The notes beneath the pieces were generated by a model that did no database searches, had not been told where the DNA came from, and saw nothing but the letters and a program-made list of their open reading frames with translations. This document shows positions 27,412-54,050 of a DNA stretch of 64,000 nt, one piece after another. Source of the stretch: an uncultured Clostridia bacterium (GTDB taxonomy: Bacteria; Bacillota; Clostridia; TANB77; CAG-508); contig CALXAP010000005.1 of NCBI GenBank assembly GCA_944386325.1, positions 32,377 to 96,376 on the forward strand. Reading direction: 5' to 3'. The first letter of the stretch is position 1. The number at the start of each line of letters is the position of its first letter. Made by a program: the position numbers and the translations under genes.

Positions 27412-30280
27412 GTTAAACTATAACATGAGATGTATTTAAATGAGACAATCACATTCGATTGTCTTTCTTTGTGGTATGTTAAACTATAACATGAGATGTA
27501 TTTAAATAGAGTATCCATGCACATCTGACATTTGTTATAGAAAGTTAAACTATAACATGAGATGTATTTAAATTGAGACCGATGAAAATGATAAGCGCCG
27601 TCTTTATGTTAAACTATAACATGAGATGTATTTAAATGCCATTTTTTTATCAGCTTCTTCTTTAATTTTCTTAGTTAAACTATAACATGAGATGTATTTA
27701 AATATTAAATGCTGAAGGATATGGATTAGGTGGTGCAACGTTAAACTATAACATGAGATGTATTTAAATAATTTTCGGTCATGCTTTTATTTATAATAGC
27801 ATTAAGTTAAACTATAACATGAGATGTATTTAAATTATTTTTCAGCTTTTTTTAAACCCCTACTACAAAAAGTTAAACTATAACATGAGATGTATTTAAA
27901 TCCGCGGAACTTATGTACAAAATACTAGATACTTTGGGTTAAACTATAACATGAGATGTATTTAAATATGCTTATGATACTTTTGAGACAATTAAGACTT
28001 AAAGTTAAACTATAACATGAGATGTATTTAAATATAACAATATTTTTGTTAGTATTTGGAACAGGTAGAGTTAAACTATAACATGAGATGTATTTAAATA
28101 GGTGTTATTTCTCCTCGTTGGGTTGATTTGTTTGAGTTAAACTATAACATGAGATGTATTTAAATCATTCTGTAGATATATATGTAAGATTTATAAGAGA
28201 TAGTTAAACTATAACATGAGATGTATTTAAATCTGCTCTTTTTCCTGATTTAGCTAATATATTTACTTGTTAAACTATAACATGAGATGTATTTAAATCC
28301 ATATTGAGAAGTAAAAGCATCCGAAAAAGAGTTATGTTAAACTATAACATGAGATGTATTTAAATTCTTCAGAAGCCTGAGAAGACAGAAAGTCATTTTG
28401 GTTAAACTATAACATGAGATGTATTTAAATTCGGCCTCATGAAAGGGCTTGAAGATTTGTATAAAAAGTTAAACTATAACATGAGATGTATTTAAATAAA
28501 ACATCCTTATTAACAAAACAAGTAACAATATAAGTTAAACTATAACATGAGATGTATTTAAATAATAATTTTGTAACAACAAAAAATATCGCCTGTATTG
28601 TTAAACTATAACATGAGATGTATTTAAATTACTACGTCAAACTCGTATATTTCAACAAGTAAATCGTTAAACTATAACATGAGATGTATTTAAATTAGTA
28701 GAAGTGATTATAATGATGTTAAAAATTTTGTGTTAAACTATAACATGAGATGTATTTAAATCCTACTATACCCCATAAGTTTGTTGCAGATAGCTCTGTT
28801 AAACTATAACATGAGATGTATTTAAATAAAACATACTCAACTACACGCCATTCATAATCTTTAGTTAAACTATAACATGAGATGTATTTAAATTTTTCAT
28901 GTGTAAGTATAAAAGTAATAATATCATCAAGTTAAACTATAACATGAGATGTATTTAAATGAAGAAGAAATTAGACGCATTAGTTTAAGTCGAACTAAGT
29001 TAAACTATAACATGAGATGTATTTAAATTTACTATAATTATAATTAAATATTATATCAGAATTTGTTAAACTATAACATGAGATGTATTTAAATCCGTAT
29101 TGAGCAGTCCAAACATCTGTAAAACTGTTGTGTTAAACTATAACATGAGATGTATTTAAATTATTTTTCAGCTTTCTTTAAGCCTCTAGAACAAAAATGT
29201 TAAACTATAACATGAGATGTATTTAAATCTATCATTAGCCTGAGAATTAAGAAAATCGTTTTGGTTAAACTATAACATGAGATGTATTTAAATAACATTT
29301 TAGAATTGTAATAACCATATTCATTTTTAGTTAAACTATAACATGAGATGTATTTAAATATATCAAATTTCTTGTAATATGTTTCAGTTTTTTGGGTTAA
29401 ACTATAACATGAGATGTATTTAAATTATAGATTGGCGGAACCTTTCGCAAGAGAGGGTTCCGTTAAACTATAACATGAGATGTATTTAAATAGGTGTTAT
29501 TTCTCCACGTTGGTCTGATTTATTTGAGTTAAACTATAACATGAGATGTATTTAAATAACATTTTAGAATTATAATATCCAAACTCATTTTTAGTTAAAC
29601 TATAACATGAGATGTATTTAAATCAATTCATATCACAGACAGTTTTATAATCGCAAAAGTTAAACTATAACATGAGATGTATTTAAATATATACAACTGG
29701 AGGAGGAGCGGGTTGCTTTGGAAGGTTAAACTATAACATGAGATGTATTTAAATGACTTAATAAATAAAAACCGAAAAGAACCAGTGGTAGGTTAAACTA
29801 TAACATGAGATGTATTTAAATTTAAAACTTGCGTATACGTACGCTTTATCACCAAGGTTAAACTATAACATGAGATGTATTTAAATTCTACATATGATAG
29901 AAGATACATAGATGAAAAAACAGTTAAACTATAACATGAGATGTATTTAAATTGTATATTCATTTAAACTAATCCATTCTTCCATTTTGTTAAACTATAA
30001 CATGAGATGTATTTAAATGAAACTCCATTTTCGCCACCTAAAAATGTATTAAGTTAAACTATAACATGAGATGTATTTAAATTTTACATTCTAGTATGTT
30101 TATATTAATACTTTAGATGTTAAACTATAACATAAGATGTATTTAAATATTAAATGCTATTGCAAGAATACTATATAAAGACAAGTTAAACTATAAGATG
30201 AGATGTATTTAAATTAAGAATTTGATAATTCTACAGGTAAAAAGAAAATTGTTAAACTATAACATGATGTATTAACACTA
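27412..30280 (+). CRISPR. CRISPR array: about 44 copies of the 30 bp repeat GTTAAACTATAACATGAGATGTATTTAAAT with 35-37 bp spacers.
   Basis: Perfect periodicity of about 66 bp. The three leader-distal repeats are degenerate (30123, 30185, 30251), fixing the leader at the cas2 side. Confidence 0.97.
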
Positions 30281-45291: not shown

Positions 45292-46704
45292 ATGGCAAGA
45301 TATAGATGTAAAATTTGTGGATATATATATGATGAAGAAAAAGAAGGAGTGAAATTTAACGATTTACCAGTTGATTGGAAATGTCCTCTATGTAAAGCAC
45401 CTAAAACTTCTTTTGAAAAAATTACAGAAGATAACCAGATAAAAAAAGAAGAGAATATTAAAAAAGAAAAAGTTGATTTAGCAAATTACATGAGAGAATA
45501 TGAAAGAAATTCTGATGATAAAGAAATTTGGATGAAAGATATTCATGAGATGGCAGTTACAGGAAAAAGTATTTCTTCTGCAATGGGAACAAAACTTCCA
45601 ATTGTTTCTTGGAATGATATATTAATTTTAGGTGCTCAATTAAATCCTATGCCATTATTAGACGATGAAAAGGTAAATATTCAAACTGTAATAGGTAAAA
45701 AAGCAAAAAAGCCAATGATAATAGAAAGCCCTGTTTTTGTTACGCACATGTCTTTTGGTGCTTTGTCAAAAGAGGCAAAGATAGCTTTAGCCAAGGGAAC
45801 TAGTATGGTTAAAACTGCTATTGGAAGCGGAGAGGGAGGAATACTTCCAGAGGAAAGAAAAAATGCATATAAATATATATTTGAATATATTCCAAATAAA
45901 TATAGTGTTACAGATGAAAATTTAAAAAATTCTGATGCAATTGAAATAAAAATTGGTCAAGGAACAAAACCAGGAATGGGAGGACATTTACCAGGAGAAA
46001 AGGTAACTGAAGAAATAGCAAAAATAAGAGGAAAATCAGTTGGTGAGAGTATAATGAGTCCATCAAAATTTACTGAAATAAATAACAAAGAAGATTTGAA
46101 AAAATTAGTAGATTATTTAAGGGAAAAATCAGAAGGAAGACCTATAGGAATAAAAATTGCTGCAGGTCATATAGAAAAAGATTTAGAATACATATGTTAT
46201 GCAAAACCGGATTTTATTACAATTGATGGAAGAGGCGGATCAACTGGATCTAGCCCAAAATTTTTAAAAGATGCAACAAGTATTCCAACTATATATGCAT
46301 TACATAGAGCAAGAAAATATCTTGATGAAAATAATATTGACATAGATTTAATAATTACAGGAGGATTGAGAATATCAAGTGATTTTGCAAAAGCGATAGC
46401 TATGGGAGCAGATGCAATAGCAATTGGTACTGCTGCAATGATTGCAATTGCATGTCAGCAATATAGAGTATGTAATACAGGAATGTGTCCAGTAGGAATT
46501 GGCACGCAAAGAGAAGACTTGCGTGGTAGATTAAAAATAGATGCATGTAGTCAGAGATTGGCAAATTATTTAAATGTCGTAAATGGAGAATTAAAAACTT
46601 TTGCTAGAATAACGGGAAAAGATGATATACATAAATTATCTATTGATGATTTAGTAACAACAAATAGGGAAATATCTGAATATACAAATATTTCTCATGT
46701 TTAA
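45292..46704 (+). CDS. Rubredoxin-domain / glutamate-synthase-related (GltS FMN-domain) fusion protein.
   Basis: N-terminal CKICGY...CPLCKAP rubredoxin motif fused to a GltB-like TIM-barrel domain (...[14 protein letters not shown]...). Confidence 0.65.
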
Positions 46705-46830: not shown

Positions 46831-47670
46831 ATGTCAGTAGATAGGAATACTACTTTAAGAGTAAATACATTAAAATACAATATCCAATATTTAATGATAC
46901 AATTAAAAAAGAATAATATAAAATTTGAGAGGGTACAGTGGTATAATAATGCCCTATTATTAAAAAATATATCAGAAAAAGATATACAAAAATTAGAGAT
47001 ATATATAAATGGATATATTTATCTTCAAAGTTTATCTAGTATGATCCCTCCATTAGTGTTATCTCCAAAATCTGGAGATAAAGTATTAGATTTGACTGCA
47101 GCTCCAGGTAGCAAAACAACACAATTAGCAAATTTAATGGATAATAATGGAGAAATTATTGCTAATGAATTAGACAAAATAAGATATGAAAGACTGAAAT
47201 ATAATGTAGAAAAGCAGGGTGCAACAATTGTTAAAATGATAAATTCAAGAGGAGAAAAATTAGGAGAAAAATATCCAGAATATTTTGATAAAGTATTATT
47301 AGATGTGCCATGTAGTGGAGAAGGTAGATTTTTAATAAATAATCCAAAAACATATAGAGATTGGTCAATAAAGAAAGTTAATAATCTAGTAAAATTGCAA
47401 AAAAAATTATTAATAAGTGCATGTAAAGCATTAAAGAAAAACGGGGTTATGGTGTATTCAACATGTACTATTAATAAATATGAAAATGAATTTATATTAG
47501 ATTGGGCAACTAAAAATTTGCCACTAAAAATAGTTGATATTAATTTGATTATAAAAGACTCTATTAAAGGAGATAATGAAAAATTAGACAGGGCAATAGA
47601 TAAGGCTATAAAGATATTACCATCTAAAAGCATGGAAGGATTTTTTGTAGCTAAATTAAAGAAGGTTTAA
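46831..47670 (+). CDS. RsmB/RsmF-like (NOL1/NOP2/Sun) RNA cytosine-C5 methyltransferase.
   Basis: SAM-binding motif LDLTAAPGSKTT and catalytic DVPCSGEGRF / YSTCT Cys motifs. The frame is open upstream to 46705 with no ATG, so the true start is probably earlier and non-canonical. Confidence 0.6.
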   Translation: MSVDRNTTLRVNTLKYNIQYLMIQLKKNNIKFERVQWYNNALLLKNISEKDIQKLEIYINGYIYLQSLSSMIPPLVLSPKSGDKVLDLTAAPGSKTTQLANLMDNNGEIIANELDKIRYERLKYNVEKQGATIVKMINSRGEKLGEKYPEYFDKVLLDVPCSGEGRFLINNPKTYRDWSIKKVNNLVKLQKKLLISACKALKKNGVMVYSTCTINKYENEFILDWATKNLPLKIVDINLIIKDSIKGDNEKLDRAIDKAIKILPSKSMEGFFVAKLKKV

Positions 47671-47699
47671 TATGTTTTATAATGAATAGTTCTTTTTTT

Positions 47700-47728
47700 A
47701 TTTACAAAATTATTGAATGATTATATTT
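47700..47728 (+). promoter_or_regulatory. Sigma-A-like promoter (TTTACA-16-TATATT) for the leader-tyrS transcript.
   Basis: Hexamers with 16 bp spacing located 16 bp upstream of the leader RBS. Confidence 0.35.
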
Positions 47729-47743
47729 AAAGGAGGTGGTTGT

Positions 47744-47812
47744 ATGGATTATTATTATTATTATTATTATTATAAAAATTTAAGAAAAGGAAAGGAGAAA
47801 AAATTAAAATGA
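47744..47812 (+). CDS. Tyr-rich leader peptide uORF, MDYYYYYYYYKNLRKGKEKKLK (8 consecutive TAT codons), translationally coupled to tyrS.
   Basis: AGGAGGTGG RBS 7 nt upstream of the ATG. An (ATT)8 microsatellite read as TAT x8. The UGA stop overlaps the tyrS AUG (ATGA). Confidence 0.5.
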   Translation: MDYYYYYYYYKNLRKGKEKKLK

Positions 47813-48972
47813 ATAATTTAGAATTTATTAAAAAAATCGCAGTTGATATTATTTCAGAAGAAGAACTATCTAAGAAATTAAACGAGAAAAGAAAACTAAT
47901 AATTAAATTAGGAGCAGATCCAAGTAGACCAGATTTACATTTGGGACATACTGTCGTATTAAGAGCTTTAAAACATTTTCAAGAAATGGGTCACGATATA
48001 ATTTTTGTTATAGGAGATTTTACAGGAATGATTGGAGACCCATCAGGAAGGAATAAAACAAGACCTGCTCTAACAAAAGAGCAAACAAGAAAATCAGGTG
48101 AATCATATTTTAAACAAGTAACAAAGATTTTAGATAGAAATAAAACAAAAATTATTTATAATTCAGAGTGGTTATCTAAAATGAATTTTAATGATGTTAT
48201 TGATATTGCTAGTAAATATACAATAGCACAATTATTAGAAAGAGATGACTTCAAGAATAGATACCAAAATAATTTGCCAATAAGTGTACATGAACTATTA
48301 TATCCATTGATACAAGGTTATGATTCGGTACAACTAAAAGCAGATATAGAAATAGGTGGAACAGATCAAACATTTAATCTTCTAGTTGGTAGAGAATTAC
48401 AAAAGGCATATGGTCAAGAAAAACAAGTTGTAATTACATTTCCTCTACTAGTAGGACTTGATGGAAAAGAGAAAATGAGTAAGTCCTTAGACAATTATAT
48501 AGGTATTGATGAATCACCTGAAATAATGTATGAAAAATGTATGAAGATACCAGATAATTGTTTATTAGAATATTTTGTGCTAACAACAGATATCGAAGAA
48601 GAAAAAGCAAAAGATTATATTACAAAAGACATTGTTGAAGCACATAGGATATATGCTAGAGAAATTATAAAAATGTATCATGGTAATGAGTACATATTAG
48701 ATGCGGAAAATAGATATAATGCAATTGCTAATAATTTAATACCAGAAAATATTGAAATAATAAATATAAGTGAAAAATATTCTAAAATAAATGTAGTTGA
48801 TTTATTAACATTGCTTAATTATGCTAATTCAAAAAGTGAAGCAAAAAGAATGATAAATCAAAAGGCAGTAAAAATTAATAATGATGTTATAACAGATATT
48901 AATTATGTTATGGATTTAAAAAATGAAATAGTATTAAAATATGGAAAGAGTAAAATTATAAAGATAAATTAA
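47809..48972 (+). CDS. tyrS: Tyrosyl-tRNA synthetase.
   Basis: HLGH (HIGH-class) and KMSKS motifs, GADPSRPDLHLGH tyrosine-specific N-terminus, and a C-terminal S4-like domain. Confidence 0.85.
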   Translation: MNNLEFIKKIAVDIISEEELSKKLNEKRKLIIKLGADPSRPDLHLGHTVVLRALKHFQEMGHDIIFVIGDFTGMIGDPSGRNKTRPALTKEQTRKSGESYFKQVTKILDRNKTKIIYNSEWLSKMNFNDVIDIASKYTIAQLLERDDFKNRYQNNLPISVHELLYPLIQGYDSVQLKADIEIGGTDQTFNLLVGRELQKAYGQEKQVVITFPLLVGLDGKEKMSKSLDNYIGIDESPEIMYEKCMKIPDNCLLEYFVLTTDIEEEKAKDYITKDIVEAHRIYAREIIKMYHGNEYILDAENRYNAIANNLIPENIEIINISEKYSKINVVDLLTLLNYANSKSEAKRMINQKAVKINNDVITDINYVMDLKNEIVLKYGKSKIIKIN

Positions 48973-49091
48973 AAAATTGAAAAAACTATTGCAATTACTA
49001 AAAAAATAGTATATAATACTAATGCAATTTAAAATAGAAACTTTAAGAGCAGGTGTAAACCTGCTCTTAAAAAGTATAATGGAGGAATATT

Positions 49092-49550
49092 TTGACAAGT
49101 ATAGAAAAAAAGGTAAAAGAATTAATAGAACCAATTATAAATAAGTTGGATTATGAATTATATGATGTTATATATACTAAAGAAGGAAAAGATTATTATT
49201 TGAAAATTTTTATAGATAACGATTGCGGAATCTCATTAGAGGATTGTGAGAAAGTAAATAATGCAATTACAGATATATTAGATGAAAAAGATTATATTAA
49301 ACAACAATATTTTTTAGAGATTTCTTCTGCTGGATTAGAAAGAGTTTTAAGAGAAGATAAACATTTTAAAGATAATATAGGAAAATTAGTAGAATTAAGA
49401 TTATATAAAAATTTGATAGATAATAAAAAAATTATAAATGGTATATTAAAAGATTTTGATGATGATAGTATTACGATAGAAGTAGAAAAAGAAGATATAA
49501 GAATTGAAAGAAAAGAAATATCAAATATAAAAACTATTTATGAATGGTAA
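49092..49550 (+). CDS. rimP: Ribosome maturation factor RimP.
   Basis: RimP family pattern. Conserved position upstream of nusA. TTG start. Confidence 0.75.
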   Translation: MTSIEKKVKELIEPIINKLDYELYDVIYTKEGKDYYLKIFIDNDCGISLEDCEKVNNAITDILDEKDYIKQQYFLEISSAGLERVLREDKHFKDNIGKLVELRLYKNLIDNKKIINGILKDFDDDSITIEVEKEDIRIERKEISNIKTIYEW

Positions 49551-51256: not shown

Positions 51257-54050
51257 TATTAAGATTCATGAGATTGCAAAAAAACTTAATATTAATAGTA
51301 AAGATGTATTAAATAAGGCAAAAGACTTAGGGTTTAATATAAAAAGTCATTTAAGTGCTGTTTCAGAAGAAGATGCCGAAAAGATAATCAATAGTCTGAA
51401 AAATAGTAATATAACAAACAAAGAAGTAAAAAAGGATAATAATTCAAAAAAAGAACAAGTAGATAAAGGACATGTCATTATTAGAAGAGAAGTAATAATT
51501 TCAGATGAAGATGATAAGAAAAATGAAAAAGAACAAACAAAAGTAAAAAGTAATAATTTTACACAGGAAAGAAGAAATAAAAATTTTAATATAGTTTATA
51601 GAAATAAAACAACAAGACCACTTACAGCAAGTGAGTTGTTTGGATTAAAAGAAGATAAAAAAGAAGAGGTTAAAGTGAAAGAAGAAACAAAAATAGTAGA
51701 AGAAGTAAAAAAAGAAGAAAAGAAAGAAATAAAAACAAATGAGGATAATATAGTAAGAGAAGAAAATAAGGAAATAAAAAAGAATATGAATATTGAAAAT
51801 AATAAAAAAGATAATTATATTAGAAAAAACAATAATAATTATAATAACAAAAATAATAATTTTAATAAAATGAAAAATAAAAATAATAATAATTTAAATG
51901 GTTATAATAATAGAAGAAATAATAATCAAAATAATCAGTATAATAATAGAAGAAAAGTATTAGATGAAAAAGGAATAGAAAAAAACATAAAAAATATAAT
52001 GTCAGCTGAAAATCAAGAAAAAGATATCGTAAGAGAATATTCAAATAAAGCAATTGATAAACAAAAAAATAATAGAAATGATGATAAAAATAGAAAACCT
52101 CAAAAAAATAAAAAATCAAATAATTACGAATTTAGTAATGATAAATTAAAAAGTTTAAAGCAAGAGAGTAAATTATCAAATATGTTTACAGAAGGTTCAA
52201 TGTTAGATTACTATGATTTAGGAAGTAATAGAGTAAGGAAAAATAAGAAGAAAAATCAAAAAGTTCAACCTTCAGAAGATAGAGTAAAACAAAAAATATT
52301 TAAATTAACAGAAATAACTATTCCAGAAACTATTACTGTTAAAGATTTAGCAGCTGAATTAAAGAAAACTAGTAGTGAAGTAATAAAAAAATTATTATCT
52401 TTTGGAATACTAGCTACTATTAATAATGTACTAGATTTTGATACAGCATATTTGGTTGCAAGTGAGTTTGGAGTAACTGCAAAGAAAAAAGAGGTTATAA
52501 AAGAAGAAGATATTTTATTTGATGAAAGTGAAGATAGAGAAGATGAGTTAATATCAAGACCTCCTGTAATAGTTGTTATGGGGCATGTTGACCATGGCAA
52601 GACTTCATTATTAGATGCAATAAGATCTACAAATGTTATTGAAGGTGAAGCGGGTGGAATAACACAACATATCGGTGCATACAAAGTTGAGATAAATGGA
52701 AGATCTATAACATTTTTAGATACACCAGGACATGAAGCTTTTACAAGTATGAGAGCAAGAGGTGCTCAAATAACTGATATAGCAATTTTGGTTGTTGCTG
52801 CAAATGATGGTGTTATGCCACAAACTGTAGAAGCAATAAATCATGCTAAAGCTGCTGGTATACCTATAGTTGTTGCAATAAATAAAATAGATTTGGAATC
52901 TGCAAATGTAGAAAGAGTAAAACAAGAATTATCAGAGTATGGTTTAATTCCAGAAGAATGGGGTGGAGATACAATATATGTTCCTATATCTGCAAGAAAT
53001 CATCAAAATATAGATACTTTATTAGAAATGGTATTATTACAAGCAGATATGTTAGATTTAAAAGTAAATCCACATAAACAAGCAAAAGGAACGGTTATTG
53101 AAGCAAAACTTGATAAAAGCAAGGGTGTAATAGCATCTGTACTTGTACAAAGAGGAAAATTAGATGTTGGTGATACAATTGTTGTTGGTTCTGTTATAGG
53201 AAGAATAAGAGCAATGACAAATGATAAAGGACAAAGAGTAAAAACAGCTGGACCATCTACACCTGTTGAAATTACAGGTTTATCAGAAGTTCCAACAGTT
53301 GGAGACACTTTCTATGAAGTTAAAGATGAAAAAATGGCTAAACATTTAATAGAAAGAAGAAAACGTCAACAAAGAGAAAGAGAATTAAATAAAACTGCTA
53401 AAGTAACATTAGACGATTTATTTAATCAAATTGAAAAAGGTAATTTAAAACAATTAAATTTAATTGTAAAAGCAGATGTTCAAGGTTCTGTTGAAGCAGT
53501 AAAACAATCACTAGAAAAACTATCTAATGATGAAGTGGTTGTAAAAGTAATTCATTCAAATGTTGGTGGAGTAACAGAAACAGATGTTACACTTGCAAAA
53601 GTTTCTAATGCAATTATTATAGCATTTAATGTTAGACCAAATAAAATTGCAAAAGAAATGGCAGAAAAAGATGGAGTAGAAATAAAAACATATTCTGTTA
53701 TATATAATGCAATTGAAGATGTTGAATTAGCAATGAAAGGTATGAGAGATCCAGAATATAAGGAAGTTATTATTGGCAATGCTGAAATAAGACAAACATT
53801 TAAGGTATCTAATGTTGGAACAATAGCAGGATGCTATATTACTGATGGTAAGATTGCTAGAAATTCTATAGTTAGGGTAATAAGAGATGATGTTGTTATT
53901 TATGAAGGAAAATTAATATCTTTAAAGAGATTTAAAGATGATGTAAAAGAAGTTTCTTCAGGTTATGAGTGCGGAATTCAATTAGAGAATTTTAATGATT
54001 TAAAAGTTGGAGACATCTTAGAAGCACATATTATGGAAGAAATAAAATAG
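51243..54050 (+). CDS. infB: Translation initiation factor IF-2.
   Basis: G domain [12 protein letters not shown]...DTPGHEAF...NKID, plus conserved C-terminal domains. The N-terminal region carries an Asn-rich low-complexity insertion. Start chosen at the ATG after the GGGGGTG SD. Confidence 0.9.

Follow-up and report, generated by a model that had tools for sequence, protein, structure and literature searches.

Does a run of tyrosine codons placed directly upstream of a tyrosyl-tRNA synthetase gene report the supply of charged tRNA-Tyr, or is it simply a chance microsatellite? This question is raised by the tyrS gene of an uncultured Clostridia bacterium that lies within the 64,000-nucleotide (64 kb) stretch of contig CALXAP010000005.1 analyzed here (hereafter the window), where a short upstream open reading frame (uORF) containing eight consecutive Tyr codons runs into the tyrS start codon. 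Because this uORF is conserved among related loci, and because unrelated leaders rich in Tyr codons also precede tyrS elsewhere, we favor Tyr-codon sensing over a chance microsatellite, and a Tyr-sensing leader ORF at tyrS is, as judged from the sequence comparisons that follow, well supported.

The leader ORF, as read from the sequence and the ORF list, encodes MDYYYYYYYYKNLRKGKEKKLK in 22 codons plus a stop (69 nt, 47744–47812, on the + strand, as are all features of this locus). From ATG 47744 the frame passes GAT 47747–47749 and then eight consecutive TAT codons (47750–47773), a perfect triplet repeat that forms the proposed stall site, before twelve further codons lead to TGA 47810–47812 (AAA AAT TTA AGA AAA GGA AAG GAG AAA AAA TTA AAA TGA); the same frame is also contained in a longer ORF from ATG 47717 in the ORF list. 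The uORF is led by the Shine-Dalgarno (SD) sequence AAAGGAGGTG (47729–47738), which matches the anti-SD complement over 10 nt and is separated from the ATG by 5 nt, with its GGAGG core ending 7 nt before that ATG. The downstream gene, tyrS (47809–48972), encodes a tyrosyl-tRNA synthetase (TyrRS) of 387 aa, and the Pfam domains PF00579 (tRNA-synt_1b), PF22421 (SYY_C-terminal) and PF01479 (S4) are found on the identical protein P0001. Its own SD, GGAAAGGAG (47789–47797, an 8-nt match), lies inside the uORF, 15 nt past the last Tyr codon, and the uORF UGA (47810–47812) overlaps the tyrS AUG (47809–47811) to form an ATGA at 47809–47812. The original prediction, which gave the uORF SD as the overlapping AGGAGGTGG (47731–47739), is exact in its account of this SD, of ATG 47744, of the (TAT)8 frame and of the ATGA overlap, and the roughly 138 nt that it placed between the upstream gene and tyrS measure 138 nt from the stop at 47670 to the tyrS ATG. 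An ATGA overlap with the downstream SD inside the upstream ORF is the anatomy that defines translationally coupled cistrons, a start signal (10-nt SD, ATG 47744) followed by clustered Tyr codons is that of a leader peptide, and the candidate stall site, at 47750–47773, would lie 15 nt upstream of the tyrS SD, as translational attenuation requires. We also note that the tyrS frame is open upstream to 47776, and that the uORF crosses an A6 run (47798–47803) shortly before the overlap; a purely hypothetical −1 shift at this run would give an N-terminally extended TyrRS resembling the natural fusion alleles described below.

The Tyr repeat is beyond chance. The (ATT)8.7 array of which it forms part is the sole perfect period-3 array in the 64 kb, TAT ×6 is found in 0 of 100 dinucleotide-preserving shuffles of the window (GC content 24.6%), and among 16,648 background short ORFs from the loci compared here none holds a Tyr run of five or more, runs of three or more being present in 0.39%. 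The initiation signal is likewise exceptional: the 10-nt SD of the uORF compares with a maximum of 9 nt among the 44 window ORFs of at least 150 aa (8 nt for tyrS), no other SD-led short ORF in the window reaches a 10-nt match, and AAAGGAGGTG occurs a single time in the 64 kb. A promoter consensus scan returned 18 sites against 17.3 expected, and hence holds no information on the tyrS promoter; the only + strand site that it placed in the leader has its −10 element within the Tyr tract.

Comparison of related tyrS upstream regions, which the original prediction had suggested as a check, bears out the uORF: the Tyr codons and the ATGA overlap are conserved, and the frame is kept with 3–8 Tyr codons in which, in the sister species, TAT and TAC are mixed. 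For this comparison, TyrRS homologues at 86–100% identity were taken from a protein collection and their contigs were fetched, which added 34 loci from this clade. All 35 loci (the window included; tyrS identity 87–100%) share this ATG and preserve its frame across the Tyr codons, of which there are 3, 4, 5 or 8, while the uORF SD is identical in 32 of the 34 other loci and the ATGA overlap is kept in 29 of the 34 (L193 and L194 counted). Apart from the Y8 form of the window, the allele types are DDDYYY, DDYHYYYY and DDYHYYYN, in orthologous variants that read MDDDYYYKNL.., MDDYHYYYYKNL.. and MDDYHYYYNKNL... The window allele MDYYYYYYYYKNLRKGKEKKLK recurs in seven other loci of the same species (tyrS DNA identity 99.4–100%), and MDDDYYYKNLRKGKEKKLK, with three Tyr codons, is found in 11 (94–99.8%; one with G>E), so that the tract is polymorphic; none of these loci has a T-box. 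T-box-bearing loci comprise ten with MDDYHYYYYKNL.. or MDDYHYYYNKNL.. (TAT, CAT and TAC mixed; tyrS DNA identity 87–89%), three in which a 5-nt deletion, GGAAAGGAG>GGAG, fuses the uORF to tyrS (L174, at 99.7%, and L178 and L179, at 88.9%), and two, L193 and L194, in which the ORF is intact and the SD core is mutated to AAAGAAAGTG (TyrRS ~89% identical). Between the window and the T-box-bearing locus L170, the stretch from SD to ATG is identical at 18 of 18 positions and the segment that follows the tract, running on to the tyrS ATG, at 38 of 38, compared with 81% identity in the adjacent spacer and 22% divergence at tyrS third codon positions; L170 and L172 differ past the tract by two substitutions (GGA>GGG and AAA>AAG), both synonymous in the uORF frame. 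A phase-variable contingency locus was considered and rejected, as the repeat unit is 3 nt and the 8-Tyr and 3-Tyr alleles both retain the frame and the overlap.

Two side observations concern the disrupted alleles. In L193 and L194, the change lies at ~375–385 of each locus, where the uORF SD core reads AAAGAAAGTGG in place of AAAGGAGGTGG, in a T-box-bearing lineage with the ORF intact. The fusion TyrRS proteins (L174, 701–1921; L178 and L179, 701–1963) are called as 406 or 420 aa long, extended at the N terminus by MDDYHYYYYKNLRKGEKIK, and the fusing 5-nt deletion is found on two tyrS backgrounds (99.7% and 88.9% identity to the window).

The tyrS gene is a textbook T-box gene. As the original prediction had held, the locus has no T-box: Rfam gives no T-box match in the whole window at gathering score, and none in 47400–48000 at E ≤ 10. 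The same is true of L162, L164, L169 and L175, for which there is no Rfam match to a T-box, whereas a T-box stands upstream of the uORF in L170, L172, L174, L178, L181 and L183 (58–62 bits, E ~1e-10), and its specifier in L170 aligns as GAA-A-UAC-A, UAC being a Tyr codon. In an alignment of T-box-bearing (L170, L172 and L174) and T-box-less loci (alignment A2), homology begins exactly at ATGAATAGTT. In the former three, GAACTATTC...GAATAGTTC-T6 is the T-box terminator, of which the window retains the 3′ arm GAATAGTTC (47684–47692) and the U tract (47693–47699) only, the 5′ arm and everything upstream being gone. This relic (47684–47699) is joined directly to the end of an RsmB/F-family methyltransferase gene (46831–47670, from the ORF call; Pfam PF01189, Methyltr_RsmB-F, on the identical gene in L161–L166), the 3′ end of which now adjoins a remnant of the tyrS leader, while the genes upstream of the T-box alleles are different ones (NUDIX/AdoHcyase or cysS). 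By this alignment, the window allele has evidently lost its T-box through a rearrangement with its breakpoint inside the terminator, and the uORF is, as far as the sequences allow its ancestry to be read, an element that stood downstream of a Tyr T-box, i.e., a T-box partner rather than a de novo replacement. The suggestion of the original prediction that a leader peptide acts here instead of a T-box thus describes the window allele as it now stands, which is T-box-less, but not its ancestry, in which the T-box, since deleted, was present alongside the uORF. The loss is recent, as L174, with a tyrS 99.7% identical to that of the window, retains its T-box.

The loss lies in a recombining population. 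The leader of L169 and the initial 600 nt of its tyrS match the window at 99.7–100%, as against 87–88% in the upstream gene and the remainder of tyrS, and L174 combines the tyrS of the window with the T-box leader of the sister species; this mosaic identity of L169 and L174 (window 47671–48972) points to homologous recombination with breakpoints in or around tyrS. We further observe that the deletion junction of the window reads TTTTATAATGAATAG, with a perfect TATAAT hexamer (47678–47683) across the breakpoint, which might act as a new −10 element for tyrS; it has a poor −35 region, and the site was missed by the consensus scan.

The argument that the Tyr tract is a sensor rather than debris rests mainly on more distant relatives, for which we collected 160 further tyrS loci (49–78% TyrRS identity) from genome and metagenome collections. 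Apart from loci with a T-box directly upstream of tyrS (class A) and a class B discussed below, three classes of leader carry clustered Tyr codons. In class C, a T-box is followed by an ORF overlapping the tyrS start that reads MxSDYYYYYFD.. (L060 and L063; T-box 96–97 bits) or MEDGYYY.. (L035; 87 bits). In class D, there is no T-box at E ≤ 0.01, and a Tyr-rich leader peptide is followed by a terminator (L059, at ~2343–2490, and L123, L122, L104, L057, L127 and L076); the peptides read ..MYYYNYYYLNRLGLLLS in L059, ..GAYYYSY.. in L123, ..AYYYESVSYYY.. in L122, ..SYYYGNRLW.. in L104 and L057, and ..YSYSYS.. in L127 and L076. In five of these leaders (L059, L123, L104, L057 and L127), the segment past the Tyr codons can pair with the 5′ arm of the terminator, with a strength close to that of the terminator, the 2:3 antiterminator duplexes being calculated at −14.6 to −25.9 kcal mol–1 and the 3:4 terminator duplexes at −16.4 to −25.7 kcal mol–1. 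In folding models, the class D leaders thus look like classical Tyr attenuators in layout, apparently replacing the T-box in these other Clostridia. As a side observation, L122 holds two successive short ORFs, each with Tyr clusters.

Class E places a T-box (72–83 bits) ahead of an ORF of the form MPxK..R[LQ][FS]Y[YNL]N.. (L058, L106 and L037), and the same ORF is found without a T-box in L065 and L147, which is a second, independent T-box loss with the uORF kept. The Tyr-codon part of the class E ORFs reads ..FYYN, SYYN, SYNY and FYLN in L058, L106, L065 and L037, respectively. We note that in L058, L106 and L065 the Tyr codons are immediately followed, at uORF nt +43 to +49, by an anti-SD motif (ACUCU or GCUCUU) that is predicted to sequester the tyrS SD. 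When a ribosome footprint is masked on the Tyr codons, the predicted accessibility of the tyrS SD rises from 0.17 to 0.80 in L058, from 0.06 to 0.46 in L106, and from 0.01 to 0.82 in L065, and on these models stalling should therefore switch tyrS on in these loci. Clustered Tyr codons are, in sum, the one feature common to about ten otherwise unrelated families of tyrS leader, and it is this recurrence that is our main reason for regarding the tract as a sensor.

Class B (49 loci, 28 distinct sequences) differs in kind. Here, a T-box is followed by AGGAGGTGAT and then by a conserved ORF, MTQxFxMKxIIxGFFY.., whose end lies at the tyrS SD. As a side observation, this highly conserved element, which occupies the space from the Tyr T-box terminator to tyrS (L006, ~2395–2480; also L002, L001, L186 and ~45 other loci), consists of AGGAGGTGAT followed by ATGACCCA..(hairpin)..GGGTTCTTCTAC, read as MTQxFxMKxIIxGFFY. 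L186 (73% TyrRS identity) was among the contigs fetched for the clade comparison and carries this leader. Variability by codon position is 0.09/0.10/0.16, which argues that the RNA is under constraint, either together with the peptide or in its place; exchanges of TGG:CCA, TCG:CGA and TCA:TGA are seen in the stem, along with some mismatched combinations, and the element has no Rfam match.

How such a sensor could act in the window is narrowed by what the window lacks. There is no terminator-like site on the + strand in 47300–49300, and with no terminator between the uORF and tyrS, transcription attenuation is excluded in the window. Classical leader-peptide attenuation was rejected on the same anatomy, as the uORF stop overlaps the tyrS AUG and the sole terminator remnant is a 3′ arm upstream of the uORF, and the likeness that the original prediction drew to the his, phe and trp leaders does not extend to their mode of attenuation in a leader with no terminator. 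Folding likewise gives no mutually exclusive antiterminator pairing in the window leader, such as is present in L059, L123, L104, L057 and L127. With the leader ORF overlapping the tyrS start and no terminator, control must be translational or exerted on mRNA stability.

We hypothesize the following scheme. With ample Tyr-tRNA-Tyr, ribosomes that initiate from the strong uORF SD would cross the tyrS SD and terminate on the tyrS AUG, such that under fast decoding uORF ribosomes would for the most part occupy the tyrS start site or serve it. Under a shortage of Tyr-tRNA-Tyr, the leading ribosome would stall in the Tyr tract with its front edge ~10–25 nt short of the tyrS SD; this would halt traffic over the tyrS ribosome-binding site (RBS), which free 30S subunits could then use, and more TyrRS would be made. 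The stalled ribosome may also shield the 5′ region of the mRNA from 5′-exonucleolytic decay. That a stall gives more, rather than less, TyrRS is suggested by homeostatic logic and by the leader anatomy of the relatives (classes D and E), not by the anatomy of the window itself. On the sequence evidence, we consider it reasonably probable that the uORF is a functional Tyr sensor acting on tyrS, and, granted such a function, we consider it likely that stalling raises TyrRS. The full statement, i.e., that this is a genuine tyrS leader ORF reporting the supply of charged tRNA-Tyr through ribosome speed, with a stall raising TyrRS, is the product of these two judgments and has somewhat less than an even chance of being correct.

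Observations of two kinds weigh against this reading. The first concern the history of the element. The (TAT)8 tract is a perfect microsatellite, which points to recent expansion by slippage, and triplet slippage preserves the frame without any selection. The leader identity between the window and L169 is that of a recombination mosaic and bears no sign of constraint, for which reason purifying selection, as it might be argued from the 100% identical L169 leader, was rejected; the constraint on the 38 nt past the tract is, in turn, partly explained by the tyrS RBS itself. The SD core is mutated in L193 and L194, and the uORF is fused in frame to tyrS in L174, L178 and L179, indicating that a separate uORF is dispensable, at least where a T-box is present. 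The original prediction had named orthologous loci that fail to maintain a uORF as evidence against it, and such loci do exist in part: three fuse the uORF to tyrS and two are SD-mutated, with all five T-box-bearing.

These points leave room for an evolutionary relic, i.e., a uORF whose function, if it ever had any, depended on the presence of the T-box, with the (TAT)8 of the window a neutral slippage product in a genome of such low GC content. A repeat that is perfect, uninterrupted and polymorphic within one species (8 versus 3 Tyr) would be expected from such a history, as would the SD-mutated and fused variants, and both the very recent loss of the T-box (see L174, above) and the recombination mosaics, which blur any signal of constraint, speak for a relic as well. 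What speaks against it is the distribution of the damage: SD, uORF and ATGA are intact in each of the 19 T-box-less loci, and the five disrupted versions all stand behind a T-box, although this contrast is a hint only, as the loci are not independent samples. In addition, the second lineage to have lost its T-box (L065 and L147) retained its Tyr uORF, the uORF SD is the strongest in the window, and Tyr-rich leaders have recurred independently at tyrS. We therefore regard a relic as unlikely, if still deserving serious consideration.

The second kind of observation concerns the RNA. The window leader folds less well than its shuffles (z = +2.1), and in our models the window clade has no terminator, and a ribosome placed on the Tyr tract would have no structure to open. 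Two transcript contexts were modeled. For an RNA that begins at the uORF SD, the models leave the tyrS SD open (predicted probability of being unpaired 0.92–0.98, and 0.92 in the window); if the tail 47684–47699, that is, the terminator relic, is in the transcript, the tyrS SD pairs with UUCUUUUUUU, and this probability is 0.05 in the window and 0.05–0.28 across the window, L164, L169, L170 and L172. The tail:SD duplex amounts to −8.2 kcal mol–1 in the window (p ~0.05 versus shuffled tails) and to −8.2 to −9.6 kcal mol–1 across clade loci (p 0.014–0.054). With a ribosome footprint masked at either the first or the last Tyr codon, the predicted probability in the window moves only from 0.05 to 0.09–0.10. 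RBS unmasking of the ermC or poly-Cys type is hence unsupported for the window clade in either context, and in these models a stall on the Tyr tract releases no sequestered tyrS RBS. Tail:SD pairing, if real, would instead favor positive coupling, in which case stalling would be expected to lower tyrS translation.

Such a positive translational coupler, in which the uORF would deliver ribosomes to tyrS by opening the tail:SD pairing and by termination–reinitiation at the ATGA, is a serious rival; the Tyr codons would then not be sensing at all, or TyrRS synthesis would fall when Tyr-tRNA is very scarce. A stop/start overlap with the tyrS SD within the uORF is classical coupled-gene anatomy, the tyrS SD that is predicted to be paired in the presence of the tail would be opened by a translating ribosome only, and the natural fusions in L174, L178 and L179 show that ribosomes from the uORF SD can be used directly for TyrRS. 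However, the tail:SD duplex is weak, with little margin over shuffled tails, the pairing is missing in L174, and tyrS has a good SD of its own, with an 8-nt match. Moreover, throttling TyrRS when charged tRNA-Tyr is low would be anti-homeostatic, such that under a purely positive coupler cognate codons would be selected against, and yet Tyr codons are what the ~ten unrelated leader families have in common. We hold such a coupler to be unlikely.

The remaining alternatives fare worse. The uORF could act only as a stabilizer of the mRNA 5′ end, its strong SD, with or without a parked ribosome, guarding the tyrS mRNA from 5′-to-3′ decay and with no gating of the RBS, in parallel to STAB-SD elements and to stalled ribosomes on erm leaders in Bacillus. 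A 10-nt anti-SD match is indeed unusually long for an initiation site, and in the T-box-less allele the element would stand at, or close to, the start of the tyrS mRNA, but the ORF, the Tyr codons and the ATGA overlap are all conserved and none of them is needed for stabilization, making this explanation very improbable. We give almost no credence to a functional micropeptide or to the TTG-started poly-Leu frame (47740–47775, MYGLLLLLLLL): both frames are open in the window, but the peptide is of low complexity and, within one species, differs between alleles in both its length and its residues (Y8 versus DDDYYY), and the poly-Leu frame, whose TTG 47740 lies just 3 nt past the GGAGG core, was rejected because, in all relatives whose ATG is followed by GAT GAT or GAT GAC, it closes after 3 codons (TTG TAT GGA TGA).

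Returning to the Tyr-sensing leader ORF, its occurrence behind a T-box in the sister species suggests a wider picture, which we put forward tentatively, as a possibility that falls well short of even likelihood. In uncultured AT-rich gut Clostridia, tyrS may be controlled by two sensors in series, the T-box reading uncharged tRNA-Tyr at the level of transcription and the leader ORF reading charged tRNA-Tyr at the ribosome, and in the lineage of the window the T-box would have been deleted, leaving the Y8 uORF to regulate an essential synthetase alone through the stop/start overlap with no RNA switch. If true, this would amount to the natural replacement of a riboswitch by a uORF, and to translational attenuation without RNA structure. 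New in that case would be a cognate-codon leader ORF in tandem with a T-box in many uncultured gut Firmicutes, riboswitch-less alleles relying on the uORF alone inside one recombining population, and other lineages in which a classical Tyr attenuator wholly replaces the T-box. These loci would form a natural series for asking how RNA-based and ribosome-based sensors of one tRNA share the work or substitute for each other, and they also bear on whether a uORF can regulate by ribosome traffic over an overlapping start without an RNA switch; the Y3, Y8, fused, SD-mutated, T-box-bearing and T-box-less alleles provide a ready-made set of mutants for this purpose.

Elsewhere in the window, there are no tRNA genes, tRNA-Tyr included. 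On the − strand, 27412–30148 is a large CRISPR array in which a 30-nt repeat matching Rfam CRISPR-DR3 (RF01316) occurs 42 times, one unit spanning ~66 nt. A 470-aa ORF at 45292–46704 starts with CxxC...CPxC and, by eye, putatively combines a rubredoxin-like domain with a larger enzyme domain. Downstream of nusA, a long A/AAT-rich low-complexity stretch with many overlapping imperfect tandem repeats (51678–52120) lies in the coding region of a gene that we take to be infB, as presumed from the rimP–nusA gene order.

In comparison with known systems, the closest in principle are the leader-peptide attenuators of trp, his, phe and thr, together with pheM, the leader of the E. coli pheST synthetase operon. 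With these, the uORF described here shares a short, well-initiated ORF rich in cognate codons, with ribosome speed as the proposed signal, and the full classical attenuator architecture is found in the distant tyrS relatives L059, L123, L104, L057 and L127; unlike the classical attenuators, the leader of the window has no terminator or antiterminator, and its ORF overlaps the tyrS start. Because pheM already controls a synthetase operon, the principle of a peptide leader is not new, and what would be new is its use at tyrS and the present architecture. The statement in the original prediction that this is not a described mechanism for tyrS agrees with the literature searched, in which no such tyrS leader turned up. 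More broadly, in the full texts searched, which leave most subscription journals outside their coverage, there is neither a Tyr leader peptide or uORF at tyrS nor a T-box combined with a cognate-codon uORF, and the tandem of T-box and uORF, the natural riboswitch-loss alleles, and the Tyr attenuators at tyrS all appear to be undescribed.

The anatomy of the overlap is that of ATGA-coupled gene pairs, with the downstream SD inside the upstream ORF, except that the upstream partner here is not a protein gene, as in the usual pairs, but a 22-codon frame dominated by one codon. In translational attenuation of the ermC or cat type, an antibiotic-signaled stall on a leader ORF raises initiation at the next cistron. 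Here too, a stalled leader ribosome is proposed to raise tyrS initiation, and the anti-SD anatomy is matched in class E (L058, L106 and L065); in contrast to ermC and cat, the signal would be tRNA charging, and the anti-SD hairpin is missing in the window clade. The Tyr T-box (Rfam RF00230), known from tyrS of B. subtilis (Henkin et al. 1992, as cited in PMC1262725), is linked to the uORF in the sister species and serves the same gene and the same variable, the charging of tRNA-Tyr, but it reads uncharged tRNA on the nascent RNA, whereas what the uORF would sense, at the ribosome, is charged tRNA. The nearest mechanistic relatives are the mycobacterial polycysteine leaderless short ORFs (Canestrari et al., bioRxiv 10.1101/834739), which act on translation of the downstream gene and in which a stalled ribosome prevents the formation of an RNA duplex that would otherwise hide the RBS of that gene. 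The two have in common a homopolymeric cognate tract in a tiny upstream ORF, no terminator, and stalling under shortage of the amino acid as the sensor, which for the uORF is a proposal; they differ in that the uORF of the window has no duplex within reach of the stalled ribosome, is SD-led, overlaps the start of its target, and would control a synthetase rather than biosynthetic genes.

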